Shown here: in pieces, positions 11,159 to 16,960 of the stretch
Numbering within the stretch: the first letter of the stretch is position 1
How the letters are laid out: each line of letters begins with the position of its first letter
Source: an uncultured Gemmatimonadales bacterium
GTDB lineage: Bacteria > Gemmatimonadota > Gemmatimonadetes > Gemmatimonadales > GWC2-71-9
Assembly (NCBI GenBank): GCA_963817715.1
Contig: CAWFPG010000009.1
Coordinates: 203,133 to 267,132 of the forward strand
DNA length: 64,000 nt
Direction: 5' to 3'
Program-made: the position numbers and the translations under genes
The notes under the pieces: generated by a model
The model's input: the letters and a program-made list of their open reading frames with translations, nothing else
Told to the model about the DNA's origin: nothing
Database searches by the model: none

Positions 11159-11311
11159 GTGCGCGAACTTGTCGTCGGCTTGCTGCTGCTGGTCGCCTGG
11201 GGCGTGCTGCAGTTCGGGGTCCAGCCGTCGACCGGCTGGTTCCACCTGCTGCTGATTGCCGGGGTCGTCCTGGTGATCCGCGGCATCGTGGTGCGCGACA
11301 GCGGCCGCTAG
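11159..11311 (+). CDS. Small two-helix membrane protein (lmo0937/DUF5670-like)
   Basis: GAGG then GTG; 50 aa: LLLLVAWGVLQFG..GWFHLLLIAGVVLVIRGIV. Confidence 0.65.
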   Translation: MRELVVGLLLLVAWGVLQFGVQPSTGWFHLLLIAGVVLVIRGIVVRDSGR

Positions 11312-12489
11312 CGCACCGTCGCGGTGGCCCAGGGCGCGGCCACCCGGCGGCAGGCGTCGCGGAGCACATCGGGCGGTGCCACCATCGAGATGCGGATGTA
11401 GGGCGCCCCGCCCGGTCCGAAGCCGCTTCCCGGCGTGAGCACGATTCGCTCCTCCGCCATCAGCAACTCGGTCACACCCCAGTCGGTCATCCCCCGGGGA
11501 ACCGGAATCCAGAGATACATGCCGGCCGCGGGCGGGGTCACCGTCACGCCGGCATCAGCGAAACCGGCCACCGCGGCGGCGAAACGGGCGCGATACCCCT
11601 CCCGAAGCACCCGCGACAGCTCTTCGCTGTGACCGAAGGCGTAGGTGCCGGCGCGCTGGACCACCGTCGGCACGCCATAGCCCACCAGCGTGCGATAATC
11701 GTTGAGCGCCGCGATCACGTCGCGTCGTCCGCAGACCACACCGAGACGCAGTCCCGCCATCGAGAAGTTCTTCGAACCCGAATGGATCTCGACCGCCACT
11801 TCCCTGGCGCCCTCGACCTCGAAGACACTCGGCGCCGCCGGTCCCTCGAGCACCAGCTCGCTGTAGGCGATGTCACTGATCAGGATGATGTCGTGCCGGC
11901 GACAGAAGGCGACCGCCTCGGCCCAGCGCTCGCGCGTGGTGACCGCTCCGGTCGGGTTGTTGGGAAAGTTGAGCAGCAGGAACTTGGCGCGACGGGCATG
12001 ATCGACGCTCACCGCATCGAGATCGGGCCAGTAGCCGTCGGCCTCGCGAACCGGCAGTCGCACCAGGTCAGCGCCGCTCGCCGCCACCGCGCGTTCGTAG
12101 ACCGGATAGGCCACGTCGGCGATCAGCATCGCGTCGCCCGGTGCGCAGTAGGCCGAGACCAGGTGCGCCAGGCCCTCCTTGGCCCCGGCGGTCGGGGTCA
12201 CCTCGGCCGGCACCTCGAGCGTGACGCCGAAGCGTCGCTGCATGTAGGCCGCGAATGTCTCGTGGAAAGCCGGCTCACCGAACATCATCGGGTAGCCGTG
12301 CGCCGTGGTGTCGCGGGCCGCCTCGGCGATCGACTCGATCAGTGCCGGCGGCATCGGCTGGTCGGGCGAGCCGAGCGAGAGGTCGAGCACCCGATGCCCC
12401 TGCGCCTCGATCACCCGCTTCTTGCGGATCAGCGTGGTGAAGACGTACGGCTGGATCGACTGCAGGATCTTGGTCGGACTGGGCACCAC
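11308..12489 (-). CDS. PLP-dependent class I/II aminotransferase (LL-DAP aminotransferase-like; candidate aromatic aminotransferase)
   Basis: DLSLGSPD, GAKEGLAH, LNFPNNPTG, SDIAYSE, HSGSKNFSMAGLRLG, PGSGFG...YIRIS. Confidence 0.9.
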   Translation of the reverse strand: MVPSPTKILQSIQPYVFTTLIRKKRVIEAQGHRVLDLSLGSPDQPMPPALIESIAEAARDTTAHGYPMMFGEPAFHETFAAYMQRRFGVTLEVPAEVTPTAGAKEGLAHLVSAYCAPGDAMLIADVAYPVYERAVAASGADLVRLPVREADGYWPDLDAVSVDHARRAKFLLLNFPNNPTGAVTTRERWAEAVAFCRRHDIILISDIAYSELVLEGPAAPSVFEVEGAREVAVEIHSGSKNFSMAGLRLGVVCGRRDVIAALNDYRTLVGYGVPTVVQRAGTYAFGHSEELSRVLREGYRARFAAAVAGFADAGVTVTPPAAGMYLWIPVPRGMTDWGVTELLMAEERIVLTPGSGFGPGGAPYIRISMVAPPDVLRDACRRVAAPWATATVR

Positions 12490-12529
12490 GAACTCCGATG
12501 TCGGGACACCGCAATATGCCCCGGGAGCC

Positions 12530-12587
12530 CGGAGGACGGAACGACGGAGGGCGGAGGACGGAGCCGGTGCCCCTCCCTCCGTCCTCA
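12530..12587. repeat. Heptamer inverted array (CGGAGGA / TCCGTCC) after the aroH stop
   Basis: cggagga cggaacga cggaggg cggagga cggagcc ... ccctccc tccgtcc tca. Confidence 0.7.
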
Positions 12588-12989
12588 GGATTCCGTCAGG
12601 TCCGGCCGCAGCACCGATGCCTCGCGCAGGTAGACGTGCCGCGGTGGGCTGCCGTTCCAGTGTCGTTCGACGTGGAGCATCACCCGGAGGCAGCGCGGCA
12701 AGCCGTCGGGGACCGGAATCTCGGTGGTGCAGAGCAGCGGCACTCGGTGCCAGCCCGCGGCGCGTGCCGCTTCGGCAGGAAAGGCACTCACGAGATCGGG
12801 GGTGACGGTGAAGATCGCCGAGATCACGTCCGACGGGTCGAGGTCATTGGCGCGTCGCAGCTCGGCGAGGAGTTCGTCGACCGCCATGGCAATCCCGCCG
12901 GGGGAGTCGTCGGCCACGGCAGTCGCGCCACGGATGGCGCGCACCGAGGGAAGCCGCAGCGCCCGTGCCAGCCATCGCGCCAGCCTCAT
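12585..12989 (-). CDS. aroH: Chorismate mutase, AroH class
   Basis: VRAIRGAT, SAIFTVTPDL..AFPAEAAR, VPLLCTTEIPV.DGLPRCLRVM, HVYLREA..LRPDL; ATGA overlap with pheA. Confidence 0.92.
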   Translation of the reverse strand: MRLARWLARALRLPSVRAIRGATAVADDSPGGIAMAVDELLAELRRANDLDPSDVISAIFTVTPDLVSAFPAEAARAAGWHRVPLLCTTEIPVPDGLPRCLRVMLHVERHWNGSPPRHVYLREASVLRPDLTES

Positions 12990-13555
12990 GCCGCCACCTC
13001 GCGGCTCGCCGCGCGGCGCGCCACCACGGCGAAGGTGGTCCGGTTGTCGGTGGCATCGGCGATATCGCGAGCCAGGATCGCGAGTCCGTAGCGCGCTGCG
13101 GCGTCGGCGGGGGCGATCGCCGCCCGGGTCCAGTCGCGGTCGGCCGCGATCGCCCGGGCGGCCCCGGCCGTGTCCGGAGCGACCCGGGGCGCCAGCCGAT
13201 GACCCGAGAGCCAGCGGGCGCACTGGGCCAGCGCCACCGGATGCGACTCGGCCCAACGCAGCGACCCCAGGTCGGCGCCATCCAGCGCCAGCAGGCAGTG
13301 CTCGATGTCGCGGTCGAAGCGGTCGACGATCTCGAGCGCCGGGCACTCCCCCAGCACCGCGACGGCCTGGCGCACGTCGCCGACGATCGAGTTCCAGATC
13401 GGCAGCAGTCCCAGCTCGGTCCGCCCGGCGGCCACCGAGGACGCGACCGCGGCAAAGTCACCGAGGCCCACCGGACGGGCGTCGGGGATCCGTGCCAGGG
13501 CGGCAAGGTGGCTGTGGGCGCCCGGGGCACCCTGGTAGGCGATCCGCATCGTCAT
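12986..13555 (-). CDS. pheA: Prephenate dehydratase, catalytic domain only (no ACT domain)
   Basis: IAYQGAPGAHSH, LLPIWNSIVG, SHPVALAQC, DTAGAA, DNRTTF; ends at 189 aa. Confidence 0.88.
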   Translation of the reverse strand: MTMRIAYQGAPGAHSHLAALARIPDARPVGLGDFAAVASSVAAGRTELGLLPIWNSIVGDVRQAVAVLGECPALEIVDRFDRDIEHCLLALDGADLGSLRWAESHPVALAQCARWLSGHRLAPRVAPDTAGAARAIAADRDWTRAAIAPADAAARYGLAILARDIADATDNRTTFAVVARRAASREVAA

Positions 13556-13570
13556 GCTCCAGCAGGGGTC

Positions 13571-13605
13571 AACAGAAACGGCCCTCTCGGGATCGAGAGG
13601 GCCGT
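13571..13605 (-). terminator. Attenuator terminator hairpin upstream of pheA
   Basis: Minus strand: ACGGCCCTCTCG-atcc-CGAGAGGGCCGT followed by TTCTGTT; 12-bp stem ending about 15 nt before the pheA start. Confidence 0.8.
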
Positions 13606-13631
13606 GGGGTGGTCGGTGCGCTGTCGTTCAG

Positions 13632-13709
13632 CTAACGCGTACGCCGACTCCCGGCCCTCTCCAGGGGAAAGGCCGCAAAGGCGAACGGAAAGCGATAGGC
13701 GCGTGACAT
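13632..13709 (-). CDS. Phe/Tyr-rich leader peptide (pheL-like), MSRAYRFPFAFAAFPLERAGSRRTR
   Basis: 25 codons with TAT, TTT, TTC, TTT, TTT clustered in codons 5-14; contains GAGAGGGCCG, complementary to the terminator 5' arm. Confidence 0.75.
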   Translation of the reverse strand: MSRAYRFPFAFAAFPLERAGSRRTR

Positions 13710-13717
13710 GGTCCAGC

Positions 13718-13747
13718 AGGGTACCGGGTGGCCCCAGTGGCCGTCAA
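13718..13747 (-). promoter_or_regulatory. Candidate promoter TTGACG-N18-TACCCT for the pheL-pheA leader
   Basis: Plus-strand cgtcaa at 13742-13747 and agggta at 13718-13723; places the TSS at or very near the leader ATG. Confidence 0.45.
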
Positions 13748-13831
13748 GTGCTCGGCGCGAGCTCCGCGAACGAGTAGATTCGAGCTTTCCCCGTGGCCGC
13801 CTCCCGCAACCGACCCAGGATGCCTCGCCGG

Positions 13832-14356
13832 ATGACCCTCGATCGTAGCCACCTCGATGCCGCCTTCGTGGCGGCCTACGACGAGCTCCGCCGGCTGGCC
13901 GGCCACCTCAAGCGCCGTGAGCCGGGGATCACCCTCGATCCCACCGGGCTGGTGAACGAGGCGTGGATCAAGCTGTCGCGTTCCCCCGAGCTGGCCGACA
14001 CCTCGCCGCTCCATTTCAAGCGGATCGCGGCGCGGGCGATGCGCCAGGTCCTGGTCGAATCGGCCCGGCGACGCCATGCCGAGAAGCGCGGCGGTCCCGA
14101 CCGGGTGGCGATCACGCTCGACGACAACCTGTCAGACCCCGCCGCGATGGCCACCGACGTGCTGATGCTCGACGGTGCCCTGGACGAGCTCGAGCGGCGC
14201 CACCCCCGCCCTGCTGCCGTGGTCGAGGCGCGCTTCTTCGGTGGACTCACGACATCCGAGATCGCTGAGTCACTGGCGATCTCCGAGGCGACGGTGCTGC
14301 GCGACTGGCGCACCGCGCGAGCCTGGCTCGCGACCGAACTCGAGACAACCCACTGA
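13832..14356 (+). CDS. ECF sigma factor, kinase-associated (TIGR02999-like) type
   Basis: YDELRRLA...TLDPTGLVNEAWIKL...AARAMRQVLVE.ARRR.AEKRGG...VVEARFFGGLT..EIA...TVLRDWRTARAWL. Start could be 13820. Confidence 0.9.
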   Translation: MTLDRSHLDAAFVAAYDELRRLAGHLKRREPGITLDPTGLVNEAWIKLSRSPELADTSPLHFKRIAARAMRQVLVESARRRHAEKRGGPDRVAITLDDNLSDPAAMATDVLMLDGALDELERRHPRPAAVVEARFFGGLTTSEIAESLAISEATVLRDWRTARAWLATELETTH

Positions 14357-14359
14357 CCG

Positions 14360-16960
14360 ATGGTGCAAACCGACGACTGGGACCGACTCGCCGAACTCTT
14401 CGAGCGCGCCCGGGCGCTCTCGACCGACGAACGGGACGCCCTGATCGCATCGGTTCGGCGCGACGACGCCGCGCTCGCCACGCGCCTGCTGGCGATGCTG
14501 GCCACCGATCCAGGTGCCGCTTCCGTGCTCGACCGACGGGACGCCGTGGTGGAGACCCTGGCACCACCTGGGGGGACGGTATTGCCGCCCTCGCATGTCG
14601 GCCCCTACCGGATTCTCCGACTGCTGGGCGAGGGGGGCATGGGGCGGGTCTACCTGGTCGAGCGCGAGGCCCTGGGGGGCTTCGCGGCGCTCAAGATCCT
14701 CCGCGACGCCTGGATCTCAGAGGAGCGACGCCAGCGATTCATGGCCGAGCAACGCTCCCTGGCGCAGCTCAGTCATCCAGGCATCGCGCAGCTCTACGAG
14801 GCCGGGACCCTGCAGGACGGCACGCCGTGGTTCGCGATGGAGTACGTCGAGGGCGAAACGATCACCGAACATGCCCGTGCCAGGCAACTCACCGTCGCCG
14901 AGCGCCTGACGCTCCTGCGCGCGGTGTGCCGAGCAGTGCAGCACGCCCACGCTCACGCGATCATCCATCGTGACCTCAAGCCGTCGAACGTGCTGGTGAC
15001 GCCGACCAGCGAGGTGAAGCTGCTCGACTTCGGCATCGCCAAGCAGCTCGATGTCGAGGGCGAGGATGCCGAGCGGACCCGCACCGGCTACCGGATGCTC
15101 ACGCCGTCGTATGCGGCGCCCGAGCAGTTCACCGGTGGTCCGATCGGGGTGCGCACCGACGTCCACGCGATCGGCGTGCTGCTCTACGAACTGCTCACCA
15201 ACCAACTGCCGTGGCCCTCGGTTGACGAGACCAGCCAGAGCCCGCTCGCTGGTCGGAGCCGCGAGGTGACCCGGCCGTCGGTGATGGCGACCCGCGGCGA
15301 GGTCGCCCCCGGCCGGGCGGGCTGGCGGGAGCTCGACGTGATCGTCCGGACCGCGATCCATCAGGACCTCGACCGCCGCTATGCAAGCGTCGAGGCGCTC
15401 TCGCGCGATCTGGGCCATTACCTCGCCAGCGAGCGCCTCGAGGCCCGGGCCGACACCCTCGGGTATCGACTCGGCCGGCTGGTGCATCGTCGCTGGCGCG
15501 AGCTCGCGGCGGGAACGGCCCTCCTGATGCTGGTGGTCGCCCTCACGGCGGCCTACGCCGTCAACCTCACCCAGGCCCGCGACACCGCACAGGCCGAGGC
15601 CGAGCGCAGTTCGAGGATCCAGTCGTTCATGCTCGGTCTCTTCCGCGGCGACGAGGCCGACGCCGGTCCGGCCGAGTCGCTCCGGGTGGTGACCCTGATC
15701 GATCGTGGTGTGCAGGAGGCCGACGCCCTCGACGCCGAGCCCGATGTGCAGGCCGAGCTACGCGAGACCCTCGGCGACCTGCGCCGCCAGCTCGGCGACC
15801 TCGACTCCAGTGACTCGCTCCTGGCCCAGTCGCTCGCCGAGCGGAGGCGACTGCACGGCAATCGGTCGGTAGGTGTGGTTCGCTCGCTGCTGGCCATCGG
15901 CCGGCTGCGTCTCGACCAGGCCCGCTTCCCCGAGGCCGACTCGATCATCCGCGAGGCCCTGGCGATGGCCCGACCGGGCCTGGCACCGGACCACCCAGTG
16001 GTACTCGATGGGTTGGCCTTGCTGGGCCGCGTCGCCGAGGAGGAGGGACAATTCGCCGAGGCGATCGTGGCAGAGGACTCGGTGCTGGCCCACCTGCGCC
16101 CCGACACCACCTCGCTCGAGTACGGGAATGCCCTGGTTGCCTTGGCCAACACCCACTTCTATGCCGGGCACCTCGACACGAGCGACTCACTCAACCACAT
16201 GGCGCTGGGGATCTTCCGGGCCCGCCGCGGCGATCGCCATCCCCTCGTCGCCGACGTGCTGATCAACCTGGGCGCCACCCAGTTCGAGCGCGGCAACTAC
16301 GCCGAAGCCGAGCGATTCGATCGCGAGGCGCTCGACCGCACCATTGCCTGGTACGGCCACGACCACCCGGTGACCGCCTCGGCCATGACCATGCTGGGCC
16401 GGGCCCTGGTGCGCGATGGCAAGAATGTCGCTGCCGACAGCATCCTCAACGAGGCCGTGGCGATTCTCGAGCGGGTCCACGGCCCGGTGCACCCGGCGGT
16501 CGCCTCGGCGCTCAACGAGCTCGGCACCATGGCGCTGCTGCAGGATCGCTATGCCGACGCCGAGCGCTACTTCGCCCGCAACCTCGCGATCTACGACTCA
16601 CTCTACCAGGGTCACCACTGGCTGGTAGGGATCGCCCAGGCCAACATCGCCTCGGTGTGGCTGGCGGAGAAACGCTACCACGACGCCGAACTGCTCTACC
16701 GCAAGGCGCTCAAGCAGTTCATCGACAGCCAGGGACCGGCGCACGTCAACACGGCGATCGGTTACATCAAGCTGGGTCGCTCGCTGCTGCGACAGCACCG
16801 CTACCGCGAGGCGGCCGACGCCTCGCGCCAGGGCTATGACATCCTGATGGCGATGCCTGAGGCGCCGGAGGGATTCGTCAAGGCGGCCCGCACCGACCTC
16901 GCCGCCGAGTACGAGCACCTCGGCGACACGCAGGAGGCACGGCGGTTCGCCGAGCCCTGA
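14360..16960 (+). CDS. Membrane Hanks-type Ser/Thr kinase with extracytoplasmic TPR array
   Basis: LGEGGMGRVY, ALK, HRDLKPSN, DFGIAK, YAAPEQ, one TM helix, then many TPR_12-like repeats. Confidence 0.95.
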   Translation: MVQTDDWDRLAELFERARALSTDERDALIASVRRDDAALATRLLAMLATDPGAASVLDRRDAVVETLAPPGGTVLPPSHVGPYRILRLLGEGGMGRVYLVEREALGGFAALKILRDAWISEERRQRFMAEQRSLAQLSHPGIAQLYEAGTLQDGTPWFAMEYVEGETITEHARARQLTVAERLTLLRAVCRAVQHAHAHAIIHRDLKPSNVLVTPTSEVKLLDFGIAKQLDVEGEDAERTRTGYRMLTPSYAAPEQFTGGPIGVRTDVHAIGVLLYELLTNQLPWPSVDETSQSPLAGRSREVTRPSVMATRGEVAPGRAGWRELDVIVRTAIHQDLDRRYASVEALSRDLGHYLASERLEARADTLGYRLGRLVHRRWRELAAGTALLMLVVALTAAYAVNLTQARDTAQAEAERSSRIQSFMLGLFRGDEADAGPAESLRVVTLIDRGVQEADALDAEPDVQAELRETLGDLRRQLGDLDSSDSLLAQSLAERRRLHGNRSVGVVRSLLAIGRLRLDQARFPEADSIIREALAMARPGLAPDHPVVLDGLALLGRVAEEEGQFAEAIVAEDSVLAHLRPDTTSLEYGNALVALANTHFYAGHLDTSDSLNHMALGIFRARRGDRHPLVADVLINLGATQFERGNYAEAERFDREALDRTIAWYGHDHPVTASAMTMLGRALVRDGKNVAADSILNEAVAILERVHGPVHPAVASALNELGTMALLQDRYADAERYFARNLAIYDSLYQGHHWLVGIAQANIASVWLAEKRYHDAELLYRKALKQFIDSQGPAHVNTAIGYIKLGRSLLRQHRYREAADASRQGYDILMAMPEAPEGFVKAARTDLAAEYEHLGDTQEARRFAEP

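Follow-up and report, generated by a model that had tools for sequence, protein, structure and literature searches.

The locus and the question

Transcription attenuation by way of a leader peptide is a textbook mechanism, known mainly from the Proteobacteria and Actinobacteria. Whether it also operates in the Gemmatimonadota, a soil phylum that is abundant and for the most part uncultured, is the question raised by a short region upstream of pheA in an uncultured soil member of the Gemmatimonadales. A sequence-only reading of the 64 000 nt of DNA analysed here (the window) had proposed that this region holds a ribosome-mediated Phe attenuator, evolved independently in a phylum in which none had been described. 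The comparative evidence (the ORF with its ATG and stop codon, the promoter spacing, the helices and the co-occurrence with pheA) supports the first of these proposals, and the unit is very probably a ribosome-mediated transcription attenuator responding to Phe, and probably also to Tyr, and probably on a leaderless mRNA. Searches for literature on attenuation, leader peptides, leaderless mRNA or transcription starts in the Gemmatimonadota found no relevant paper, and within the literature searched the statement that none has been described in the phylum therefore holds. The features of the locus are listed in Table 1.

Table 1. Features of the pheA leader and of the genes downstream, with positions in the window
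Feature	Position	Strand	Basis or remark
-35 hexamer TTGACG	13742..13747	-	Read from the sequence
-10 hexamer TACCCT	13718..13723	-	18 nt 3' of the -35 hexamer; 8 nt 5' of the ATG
Leader ORF, 25 codons + TAG	13632..13709	-	Sequence reading and translation
Control codons Tyr5 (TAT), Phe7 (TTT), Phe9 (TTC), Phe11 (TTT), Phe14 (TTT)	13668..13697	-	
Region 1, leader nt 35–45, contains the Phe14 codon	13665..13675	-	RNAalifold consensus; pairs with region 2 (anti-antiterminator)
Region 2, GAGAGGGCCG, leader nt 49–58, codons 17–20	13652..13661	-	Pairs with region 1 or region 3
Region 3, terminator 5' arm, contains CGGCCCTCTC	13594..13605	-	Complementary to regions 2 and 4
Region 4, terminator 3' arm	13578..13589	-	12 pairs, nine of them GC (terminator scan)
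T-tract TTCTGTT	13571..13577	-	Directly after the terminator stem
pheA, prephenate dehydratase (PDT) catalytic domain	12986..13555	-	Pfam PDT, E 1.5e-41, profile 1–179 of 181
aroH-type chorismate mutase	12585..12989	-	Pfam CM_1, E 2e-40
Class I/II aminotransferase	11308..12489	-	Pfam Aminotran_1_2, E 5.8e-55

Leader ORF and control codons

The 25-codon ORF was found with the peptide that had been proposed for it, as were the four Phe codons (three of them TTT) and the single Tyr codon described within codons 5–14, where Phe and Tyr make up five of the 10 codons. TTT had been called rare in this DNA, and in a set of 1251 ORFs of the host genome that were long and GC3-rich it accounted for 5.3 % of Phe codons, at a frequency of 1.66 per 1000 codons. 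The host encodes one tRNA-Phe (GAA) and one tRNA-Tyr (GTA).

All 36 distinct leaders compared began with ATG and ended with an in-frame stop codon (TAG in 31, TGA in four and TAA in one), and 31 of them encoded 25–27 codons. Phe made up 14.0 % of their codons, compared with 3.1 % in the long ORFs of the host genome, and Tyr 6.1 %. There was a preference for T in the third position of these codons (TTT 84 vs TTC 43; TAT 39 vs TAC 16), which amounted to 66 % of Phe and 71 % of Tyr codons, against 25 % (11/44) of the other NNY codons. Outside the Phe and Tyr codons the GC3 of the leaders was 81 %, compared with 88 % in the long ORFs of the host. Synonymous changes represented 29 % of codon differences between leaders when counted in frame and 18 % in the other two frames, and the Gly/Arg-rich C-terminal tail of the peptide was kept through such changes. 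Short ORFs with at least four Phe and Tyr codons in 10 were found in none of 61 pheA upstream regions from outside the Gemmatimonadota.

Promoter and start of the leader

The promoter that had been claimed upstream of the leader ORF was also recovered, with the hexamers and spacings given in Table 1. The TTGAC and TAnnnT positions were invariant in 14 relatives, with a variable spacer between them, and TAnnnT lay 5–9 nt 5' of the ATG in 35 of the 36 distinct leaders. A generic promoter scan did not call the leader promoter, since its -10 hexamer matches the consensus at only three of six positions. By this spacing the A of the ATG falls 6–10 nt past the -10 hexamer. This geometry leaves no space for a Shine–Dalgarno sequence, so that the ORF probably starts at or beside the transcription start and the leader transcript is, to judge from promoter spacing, probably leaderless. 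A strict pattern of promoter plus start codon had 22 matches genome-wide and yielded four short ORFs, and an amino-acid bias was present only in the pheA leader; as a test of leaderless starts in the whole genome the pattern gave no signal, 12 of the 22 matches opening ORFs of at least 100 codons where the background rate was 0.425 (p 0.18).

Alternative hairpins and terminator

The sequence-only reading had rested its switch on a repeat, which was confirmed: GAGAGGGCCG, occupying region 2, recurs in the terminator 3' arm, and its complement CGGCCCTCTC is located at 13604–13595 in the terminator 5' arm. A terminator scan called the claimed 12 bp stem at 13605–13578, followed by TTCTGTT, a T-tract that is interrupted; in 1.4 kb, two terminator-like sites were observed where 0.3 were expected. 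A T-rich tail 3' of a GC-rich stem was present in all aligned relatives, and the ribosome-binding site of pheA lies outside the leader hairpins.

The leader RNA folded more stably than 199 of 200 shuffled sequences, and the consensus fold of the relatives (RNAalifold) yielded a hairpin between regions 1 and 2 together with the terminator. The 1:2 hairpin is a third helix, absent from the sequence-only reading. Over 36 sequences, 97.5 % of cells in the 1:2 helix were paired, with both sides changed in eight of its 10 pairs, and 91.5 % of cells were paired in the terminator helix; these two helices are favoured by the fitting of alignment A6 to the 1:2 plus 3:4 structure. The 2:3 antiterminator helix (10 bp) had been left out of the model. 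The share of its cells that were paired was 94.3 % with 14 sequences and 90.8 % with 36, compared with 50–59 % in a slid control, and only two of its 10 pairs showed both-side changes. Considered together, the three helices had 91–98 % of cells paired vs 44–63 % when slid, with compensatory changes, the covariation counts being drawn from related sequences. Such changes had been put forward as a check on the proposal, and they were found in the terminator, the antiterminator and the 1:2 hairpin; one position varied in step across regions 1, 2, 3 and 4. When the stretch spanning regions 2 and 3 was folded freely, at least eight of the 10 antiterminator pairs formed in 29 of 34 leaders. An amino-acid-enriched ORF, an intrinsic terminator, an antiterminator that pairs with the terminator 5' arm and a competing 1:2 hairpin, the features by which an attenuator is recognised, were thus all found at the locus.

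Predicted energies were -12.9 kcal/mol for the 1:2 hairpin, -24.7 kcal/mol for the 3:4 terminator and -34.7 kcal/mol for the extended 2:3 structure. Region 2 still paired with region 3 in a 116 nt nascent RNA in which the nucleotides under a ribosome halted at Phe9 or Phe11 were forced to be unpaired, and the 2:3 structure was the minimum-energy fold of this RNA even without a ribosome. As 2:3 is more stable than 1:2, the ‘off’ state would depend on kinetics or on the cover that a ribosome gives to region 2. The stop codon of the leader is situated 18 nt past region 2, and a terminating ribosome would therefore not mask region 2, in contrast to trpL.

Downstream genes and Phe/Tyr physiology

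The product of pheA is an unfused PDT that lacks an ACT domain. A GGAG motif lies 7 nt 5' of the second ATG of the gene (13549), the probable true start, and the ATG of aroH overlaps the pheA stop codon (ATGA). The unit probably ends with the aminotransferase gene. In 29 of 30 loci of the genus the leader was followed by PDT and then AroH, the thirtieth being cut by a contig end, and the aminotransferase followed in 18 of the 30 within the DNA fetched.

The host genome encodes a phenylalanine hydroxylase, and prephenate dehydrogenase, which was found in all 14 control genomes, was undetectable in it. The probable source of Tyr is therefore Phe, a route of supply that fits the presence of Tyr among the control codons. 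No aromatic leader was found upstream of the host's own phhA or DAHP synthase genes.

Conservation in the genus and the phylum

Conservation of a Phe-rich ORF upstream of pheA in relatives, the other check that had been suggested, was borne out, with the ATG and an in-frame stop retained. Leader ORF and promoter were present at all 13 genus loci with pheA that were compared, and at two loci of another family. Of 52 genus genomes, 36 had a single full-length match to a covariance model built on the leader (R1); the score was at least 51 bits in 35 of them, and one match was weak (genome G058). Among the 25 genus genomes searched for both leader and pheA, 14 had both and 11 had neither. A further R1 match (G014:C11, 24.6 bits) was rejected, having neither Phe enrichment nor a promoter.

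Other families and a Longimicrobiales MAG also had Phe/Tyr-rich leaders of the same layout with different stems, upstream of PDT or DAHP synthase genes. In a phylum-wide draw, an aromatic-rich short ORF and a terminator preceded pheA at 33 of 81 loci. Peptide sequence outside the aromatic block was not conserved between families, and aromatic-rich ORFs of similar length recurred in lineages with stems of unrelated sequence. Complementarity between the 3' part of the ORF and the terminator 5' arm clearly exceeded that of shuffled sequences in seven of 33 divergent leaders by a contiguous-run test of low power (threshold ≤10 of 200 shuffles); the duplex-energy test that replaced it gave 13 of 33. 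A MAFFT alignment with three divergent leaders (A3) misaligned the Longimicrobiales terminator arms and was excluded from the pair counts. Six weak matches in the phylum (L145, L146, L148, L156, L157 and L161) resembled gene ends followed by terminators and were not accepted as leaders. Other attenuator candidates in the host were sought among 1521 terminator-like hairpins. Filtering for a complement upstream and for a short ORF left 74, none of which was convincing apart from the pheA leader.

Proposed mechanism

From this anatomy we infer the transcription start, leaderless initiation, translation of the ORF, stalling, termination and direction of the response as follows. Transcription would start at or beside the ATG of the 25-codon ORF, in which case the leader would be translated as a leaderless mRNA. 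The signal sensed would be charged tRNA-Phe, and probably tRNA-Tyr too, and the operon under control would comprise pheA, aroH and the aminotransferase gene. With Phe plentiful, the ribosome would pass the Phe/Tyr codons and region 2, and 1:2 would re-pair behind it; region 3 would then be free to form the 12 bp 3:4 terminator, and RNA polymerase would halt at the T-tract, short of pheA. Under a shortage of Phe-tRNA, the ribosome would stall at the codon for Phe9 or Phe11, covering region 1 and leaving region 2 free to pair with region 3 as region 3 emerges, so that the terminator would be blocked and the operon transcribed. Most of the control codons are the rare TTT and TAT, which the single tRNA-Phe (GAA) and tRNA-Tyr (GTA) read through G:U wobble; this would plausibly give a sharper response.

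Comparison with known attenuators

The nearest counterpart is the enterobacterial pheL–pheA leader (Rfam RF01859, Phe_leader), which shares the prephenate dehydratase target, a Phe-rich ORF, the set of 1:2, 2:3 and 3:4 hairpins and an intrinsic terminator before pheA. RF01859 (gathering score 55 bits; the Escherichia coli control scored above this cut-off) gave no match in positions 12500–14500 of the window at E values up to 10, nor in the whole genome at E values up to 1, and the leader thus has no detectable similarity of sequence or structure to Phe_leader. The suggestion of independent evolution stands only to the extent of this absence of detectable similarity. All Rfam 15 matches in 12500–14500 at E values up to 10 were at chance level, and no T-box or riboswitch family was among them. 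The leader also differs from pheL in having no space for a Shine–Dalgarno sequence, whereas in RF01859-type leaders the ORF follows a 5' UTR that carries a ribosome-binding site; in its Phe codons, only four in number and spaced rather than in runs; in the Tyr among its control codons; and in its stop codon beyond region 2. One paper lists 53 pheL genes in Gammaproteobacteria, and in its text the possible cases outside the Proteobacteria are Bacteroides and Desulfobacterium only (PMC3082878).

Leaderless leader peptides have already been reported in Deinococcus and in mycobacteria and are not new in themselves. In Deinococcus deserti, a role in transcription attenuation was predicted for 14 putative peptides of this kind (PMC4007540). 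They share with the pheA leader an ORF at the 5' end of the transcript, enrichment in one amino acid and a position upstream of biosynthesis or tRNA synthetase genes; they belong to another phylum, and their starts were mapped, whereas here the start is deduced from promoter spacing alone (PMC4007540). The word phenylalanine does not occur in the main text of that paper, although its supplementary table S9 may list a Phe leader. The leaderless polycysteine short ORFs of mycobacteria (10.1101/834739) are similar in that the short ORF is the first cistron and controls the genes that follow it in response to a single amino acid, which in that system is Cys. The pheA leader has a conserved intrinsic terminator and antiterminator.

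Alternative explanations

The three alternative helices are supported independently of the ORF, and could belong to an RNA switch worked by a protein or a small ligand, with the ORF untranslated and its Phe codons incidental. This would leave unexplained the ATG and in-frame stop in all 36 leaders with all three stop codons in use, and a GC3 that is gene-like save at the Phe and Tyr codons; it also sits badly with the aromatic-rich ORFs of similar length on unrelated stems in other lineages and with the lack of a riboswitch or T-box match, and we consider it scarcely credible. Translation of the ORF could also serve another end, if the product were a functional small protein with an aromatic core and a basic tail, or if the leader RNA acted in trans, control of pheA being secondary or absent. 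Precedents exist in the trans-acting attenuator RNAs and leader peptides of Sinorhizobium (PMC6614838, PMC7298713), and the maintenance of the Gly/Arg-rich tail by synonymous changes is in keeping with a peptide function. Such a role is very unlikely, given that the unit always lies directly 5' of pheA or a DAHP synthase gene, that the leader was not found in genus genomes without a detected pheA, that region 2 accepts amino-acid changes (Arg to Gly) which preserve pairing, and that conservation of the peptide between families does not extend past the aromatic block.

A third reading accepts that stalling is sensed and places the output elsewhere than in intrinsic termination, in Rho-dependent polarity, mRNA stability or the translation of pheA. 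The T-tract is short as well as interrupted, and the leaderless Cys-rich short ORFs of mycobacteria have been reported as attenuators of operonic gene expression (10.1101/834739), both of which speak for it. The retention of a GC-rich 12 bp stem and T-rich tail in all aligned leaders, and the position of the pheA ribosome-binding site outside the hairpins, make it improbable to a high degree.

Implications

As a very probable ribosome-mediated attenuator, the pheA leader extends leader-peptide attenuation to the Gemmatimonadota. Units of this kind are missed by ORF callers, and can be recognised by annotators from an aromatic-rich leaderless ORF that has a promoter before it and is accompanied by three hairpins. 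The preference for TTT and TAT is confined to the control codons and offers a clean natural test of codon choice for the sensitivity of attenuators, the idea that attenuators choose codons in this way having been discussed before (PMC1183508). That a prephenate dehydratase lacking the ACT domain is found together with an attenuator suggests that in this case regulation has passed from the allosteric to the transcriptional level.

A wider reading, which is possible and is put forward tentatively, is that aromatic synthesis, and possibly other pathways, are run in the Gemmatimonadota by a family of leaderless leader-peptide attenuators. On this reading, the operons of pheA or DAHP synthase in several families may begin with leaders rich in Phe and Tyr (and Trp), the use of rare, wobble-read TTT and TAT control codons may be systematic and serve as a tuning device, and similar units of a leaderless ORF and terminator may precede aspartokinase (a Met-rich ORF), O-acetylhomoserine sulfhydrylase and glutamate synthase genes. 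If this were true, then in lineages such as the present one, in which the ACT domain of the PDT has been lost, the supply of Phe and Tyr would be governed mainly by attenuation in place of allosteric feedback.

Leader region upstream of pheA

The sequence-only reading had described, upstream of the prephenate dehydratase (PDT) gene pheA, an ORF of 25 codons with four Phe (three of them TTT) and one Tyr in codons 5–14, a segment after these control codons identical to the terminator 3′ arm, a 12 bp terminator with TTCTGTT ahead of pheA, and a promoter ahead of the ATG. That description held in every particular. The ORF was recovered by ORF reading on the minus strand, the terminator was called by the terminator scan, and both promoter hexamers were read in the sequence ahead of the ATG. 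The repeat was likewise present, the ten letters of GAGAGGGCCG recurring as the core of the terminator 3′ arm. TTT is indeed rare in this GC-rich DNA (source genome GC 69.1 %): in 1251 long GC3-rich ORFs of the source genome it made up 5.3 % of Phe codons, and Phe and Tyr accounted for 3.1 and 2.1 % of all codons.

Features of the pheA leader and its operon in the window (leader nt 1 is the A of the ATG)
Feature	Window position	Strand	Leader nt	Remarks
-35 hexamer TTGACG	13747-13742	-		Read in sequence
-10 hexamer TACCCT	13723-13718	-		Read in sequence; after 18 nt spacer
Leader ORF, 25 codons	ATG at 13709; TAG at 13634-13632	-	Stop codon 76-78	ORF reading; ATG 8 nt past -10
Control codons Tyr5, Phe7, Phe9, Phe11, Phe14		-		In leader ORF; TTT in three of four Phe codons
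Region 1		-	35-45	Includes Phe14 codon
Region 2, GAGAGGGCCG	13661-13652	-	49-58	Within leader codons 17-20
Region 3		-	106-115	
Region 4		-	122-131	
Terminator hairpin, 12 bp, then TTCTGTT	13605-13578 (stem)	-		Called by terminator scan
pheA (PDT)	12986-13555	-		Starts 22 nt past T-tract; Pfam PDT, E 1.5e-41; 189 aa; ACT domain absent
aroH-type chorismate mutase		-		Overlaps pheA at ATGA; CM_1, E 2e-40
GC-rich strong hairpin	12522-12607	both		In 95 nt aroH-aminotransferase gap
Class I/II aminotransferase		-		Downstream of aroH; Pfam search
ECF sigma factor gene (PF07638), then 4 nt on Ser/Thr kinase gene with long TPR region	13793-16960	+		Divergent to leader promoter

The 157 nt leader RNA folds at −65.4 kcal/mol, a value equalled by one of 200 shuffles. 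In its minimum-energy fold, regions 1 and 2 form a hairpin not mentioned in the sequence-only reading, so that the leader RNA has the full classical set of an anti-antiterminator (1 : 2), an antiterminator (2 : 3) and a terminator (3 : 4). The upstream regions of 80 pheA loci, drawn from named public genomes, were searched for short ORFs containing four or more Phe plus Tyr in 10 codons; such an ORF was found at five of the 19 labelled Gemmatimonadota loci (one of the 19 having only 13 nt of upstream DNA) and at none of the 61 non-Gemmatimonadota loci. The divergent ECF sigma factor and kinase–TPR genes are not part of the unit, since the gene next upstream of the leader is not the same in all relatives.

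Conservation in relatives

The leader unit was found upstream of PDT in all 13 same-genus genomes with a PDT match and in a further two from a neighbouring family. When 14 genus sequences were aligned, TTGAC and TAnnnT proved invariant and the 18 nt spacer varied freely, which is a promoter signature, as judged from the alignment. An AT-rich motif of about 11 nt, which might serve as an UP-like element or bind a regulator, lies a few bases 5′ of the −35 hexamer in six relatives (L006–L010 and L013) and is absent from the window's copy.

A covariance model of the leader (R1), built from 16 leaders, found a single full-length copy in 36 of the 52 genus genomes, with scores of 51–144 bits for 35 copies and 29 bits for one in the unpublished genome G058. 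When 25 genus genomes were searched for leader and PDT alike, the two were jointly present in 14 and jointly absent in 11. The order leader–PDT–AroH was seen at 29 of 30 genus loci, the 30th ending at a contig edge, and an aminotransferase followed at 18 of the 30 within the DNA fetched. Alignment of pheA upstream regions in relatives had been proposed as a check; the Phe-rich upstream ORF was conserved (36 leaders) and compensatory stem changes were found.

Codon usage and signs of translation

Coding signals were examined in 36 distinct leaders, of which 34 come from the genus and the others are L065 and L072. All 36 start with ATG and have an in-frame stop in the same place (TAG in 31, TGA in four and TAA in one), and 31 are 25–27 codons long. 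TAnnnT lies only 5–9 nt 5′ of the ATG in 35 of the 36, too close for a ribosome-binding site to fit between them. Phe and Tyr make up 14.0 and 6.1 % of the codons, respectively. In counts that overstate independence, as the leaders are all related, TTT outnumbers TTC (84 vs 43) and TAT outnumbers TAC (39 vs 16), whereas the other two-fold NNY codons keep the genomic preference (11 T-ending, 33 C-ending); GC3 of the non-Phe/Tyr leader codons is 81 %, compared with 88 % in the long ORFs of the source genome. With tRNA-Phe(GAA) and tRNA-Tyr(GTA) each encoded once in this genome, TTT and TAT are wobble-read. Of the pairwise codon differences, 29 % are synonymous in the leader frame, against 18 % in each of the other two frames. 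These signs are indirect but consistent, and suggest that the leader frame is read by ribosomes and that its Phe/Tyr codons are under their own selection.

Alternative helices and proposed mechanism

RNAalifold, applied to the 14-sequence alignment, predicted exactly the 1 : 2 hairpin and the terminator. In this alignment 94.7 % of cells were paired in 1 : 2 plus 3 : 4 (44–63 % when slid) and 94.3 % in 2 : 3 (50–59 % when slid). In the model-aligned set of 36 distinct leaders, which was fitted to 1 : 2 and 3 : 4 and hence favours those two helices, the values were 97.5 % for 1 : 2 and 91.5 % for 3 : 4 (46–61 % when the two were slid together), with both-sided changes at 16 of their 23 pairs. 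The model leaves out helix 2 : 3, whose count is therefore the cleaner test: 90.8 % of cells were paired (50–58 % when slid) and 18 cells had changes on both sides. One position covaries in all four regions (T/C in regions 1 and 3, A/G in regions 2 and 4); in region 1 it is either silent or exchanges Phe and Tyr, and in region 2 it replaces Arg with Gly, so that there pairing and not the peptide is kept. At least eight of the 10 antiterminator pairs formed in the unconstrained fold of the region 2-to-3 segment in 29 of 34 genus leaders.

Stalling was modelled with a ribosome assumed to cover about 12 nt past the first base of the A-site codon, the covered stretch being forced unpaired. With a stall at Phe9 or Phe11, region 1 was covered partly or nearly wholly, region 2 was free, and 2 : 3 paired in the constrained fold of the 116 nt nascent RNA. 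A stall at Phe14 covered part of region 2, and with a stall at Tyr5 or Phe7 the 1 : 2 hairpin remained intact in the full-length fold. Isolated energies were −12.9 kcal/mol for 1 : 2, −24.7 kcal/mol for 3 : 4 and −34.7 kcal/mol for 2 : 3 with its inner stems. Even with no ribosome present, the nascent RNA has 2 : 3 as its minimum-energy structure, and 18 nt separate region 2 from the stop codon downstream of it. These two features are a weakness of the classical reading, and termination under Phe-replete conditions must therefore rest on the ribosome or on kinetics. The ribosome might cover region 2 during synthesis of regions 3 and 4; alternatively, faster local folding of 1 : 2 behind the ribosome might lead to termination. 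By either route, smooth translation would give termination and stalling at Phe would give read-through.

The conserved Phe-rich ORF, the three covarying alternative helices and the co-occurrence with PDT support the ribosome-mediated Phe attenuator that the sequence-only reading had proposed. On this comparative evidence the leader is very probably a ribosome-mediated Phe (probably also Tyr) transcription attenuator of the pheA–aroH–aminotransferase operon, its ORF most probably being translated from a leaderless mRNA.

Distribution in Gemmatimonadota

R1 matches were found in 26 of 151 genomes drawn evenly from the phylum. Leaders of equal length (138–146 nt, ATG to T-tract) and layout, with different stem sequences, were present in another family (L015, L016 and L019) and in a Longimicrobiales MAG (L066). 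Among 19 weak full-length R1 matches inspected, six were aromatic-rich ORFs, leaderless by position, one with seven Phe in 25 codons. They precede PDT-ACT, a PDT-ACT–DAHP synthase unit or DAHP synthase; Pfam confirmed five of the six downstream genes; at L143, the sixth, the tested ORF had no Pfam match.

R1 also picked up short ORF plus terminator units before other genes (L153, L142/L160, L152/L155 and L149), the ATG mostly lying just past a −10-like hexamer. One is Met-rich (five Met in 21 codons) and lies ahead of an amino-acid kinase (aspartokinase-like) gene; another, conserved and containing Cys/Met, precedes a Cys/Met PLP enzyme gene (metY-like); two more precede the glutamate synthase large subunit and a HAD hydrolase, respectively.

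A rule-based scan of 1.5–1.8 kb upstream of PDT (an ORF of 12–40 codons with at least four Phe/Tyr/Trp in 10 codons, then a hairpin and T-run) was positive at 33 of 81 PDT loci outside the own genus. The antisense-strand control was positive at five of 81, of which four resemble true leaders, all in one genus, of a divergently oriented gene. In one genus of the neighbouring family (L224, L225, L227 and L232), an aromatic-rich leaderless short ORF and terminator on the strand opposite pheA presumably head a divergent gene; at L072, a similar opposite-strand case heads DAHP synthase with a ferredoxin-like domain. When scored by contiguous run, complementarity between the 3′ part of the ORF and the terminator 5′ arm beat shuffles (at most 10 of 200 as good) in seven of the 33 divergent leaders; scored by duplex energy, it did so in 13. 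The predicted antiterminator is well supported in the own genus and some other lineages, not in all.

DAHP synthase catalyses the first step of the common pathway. Trp codons, nearly absent from own-genus leaders (5 of 906 codons), are common in leaders of DAHP-synthase-containing units (L139, L144, L186, L191, L196, L201–L203, L205, L206, L209, L210, L222, L236, L237 and L239). The rule is not strict, as several PDT-ACT–DAHP synthase units have Phe-only leaders.

Aromatic amino acid metabolism and neighbouring genes

The ACT domain carries allosteric feedback by Phe. It is present in several other PDTs scanned and absent from the own-genus PDT, which is a bare catalytic domain. PDT was found in 87 of the 151 phylum genomes (a tally that includes the unpublished G114); it was not found in 64, many of them more than 95 % complete, or in 11 of 24 other genus genomes. 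These absences suggest that Phe auxotrophy is widespread or that Phe is made by a different pathway.

The source genome (93.6 % complete) encodes phenylalanine hydroxylase (PF00351, E 1.5e-42) and gave no match to prephenate dehydrogenase (PF02153), which was matched in 14 of 14 control genomes; the probable source of Tyr is therefore Phe, which would account for Tyr among the control codons. No aromatic leader was found upstream of its DAHP synthase gene or phhA. At the phhA locus (L162, G000:C4:742619-743326), the region upstream of the gene contains a two-codon mini-ORF (ATG, one codon, stop) after a −10-like hexamer, then a small hairpin before the ribosome-binding site.

A 151 nt stretch with the hairpin of the aroH–aminotransferase gap folds at −79.6 kcal/mol (none of 200 shuffles as good). 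Its hairpin has no T-tract, was not called by the terminator scan, and might stabilize the mRNA or serve as a processing site.

Comparison with known systems

As the sequence-only reading had held, the leader shares the logic of the enterobacterial pheL–pheA attenuator: a Phe-rich ORF, the 1 : 2/2 : 3/3 : 4 alternatives and a terminator before pheA. Unlike the E. coli control, which was recognized, it falls outside Rfam Phe_leader: a search of the leader region with E up to 10 and one of the whole genome with E up to 1 gave no match. One paper counts 53 pheL genes in Gammaproteobacteria and names, outside Proteobacteria, only Bacteroides and Desulfobacterium as possible (PMC3082878). According to a 2010 paper, its authors knew of demonstrated leader-peptide systems in Proteobacteria and Actinobacteria alone; the paper then adds Firmicutes (PMC2965389). 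Leaderless leader peptides are already known, from Deinococcus deserti, where 14 were predicted with mapped starts (PMC4007540), and from mycobacteria, where Cys-sensing leaderless short ORFs were reported (10.1101/834739). Control-codon bias in attenuators is likewise a known theme (PMC1183508). In agreement with the earlier statement that no attenuator was known in the phylum, the literature search found no paper tying Gemmatimonadota to attenuation, leader peptides, leaderless mRNAs or mapped transcription starts.

The leader would thus be a new member of a textbook attenuator class, in a phylum for which no published examples were found. What is notable for specialists is its putative leaderless initiation, together with control positions that selectively use rare codons read by wobble.
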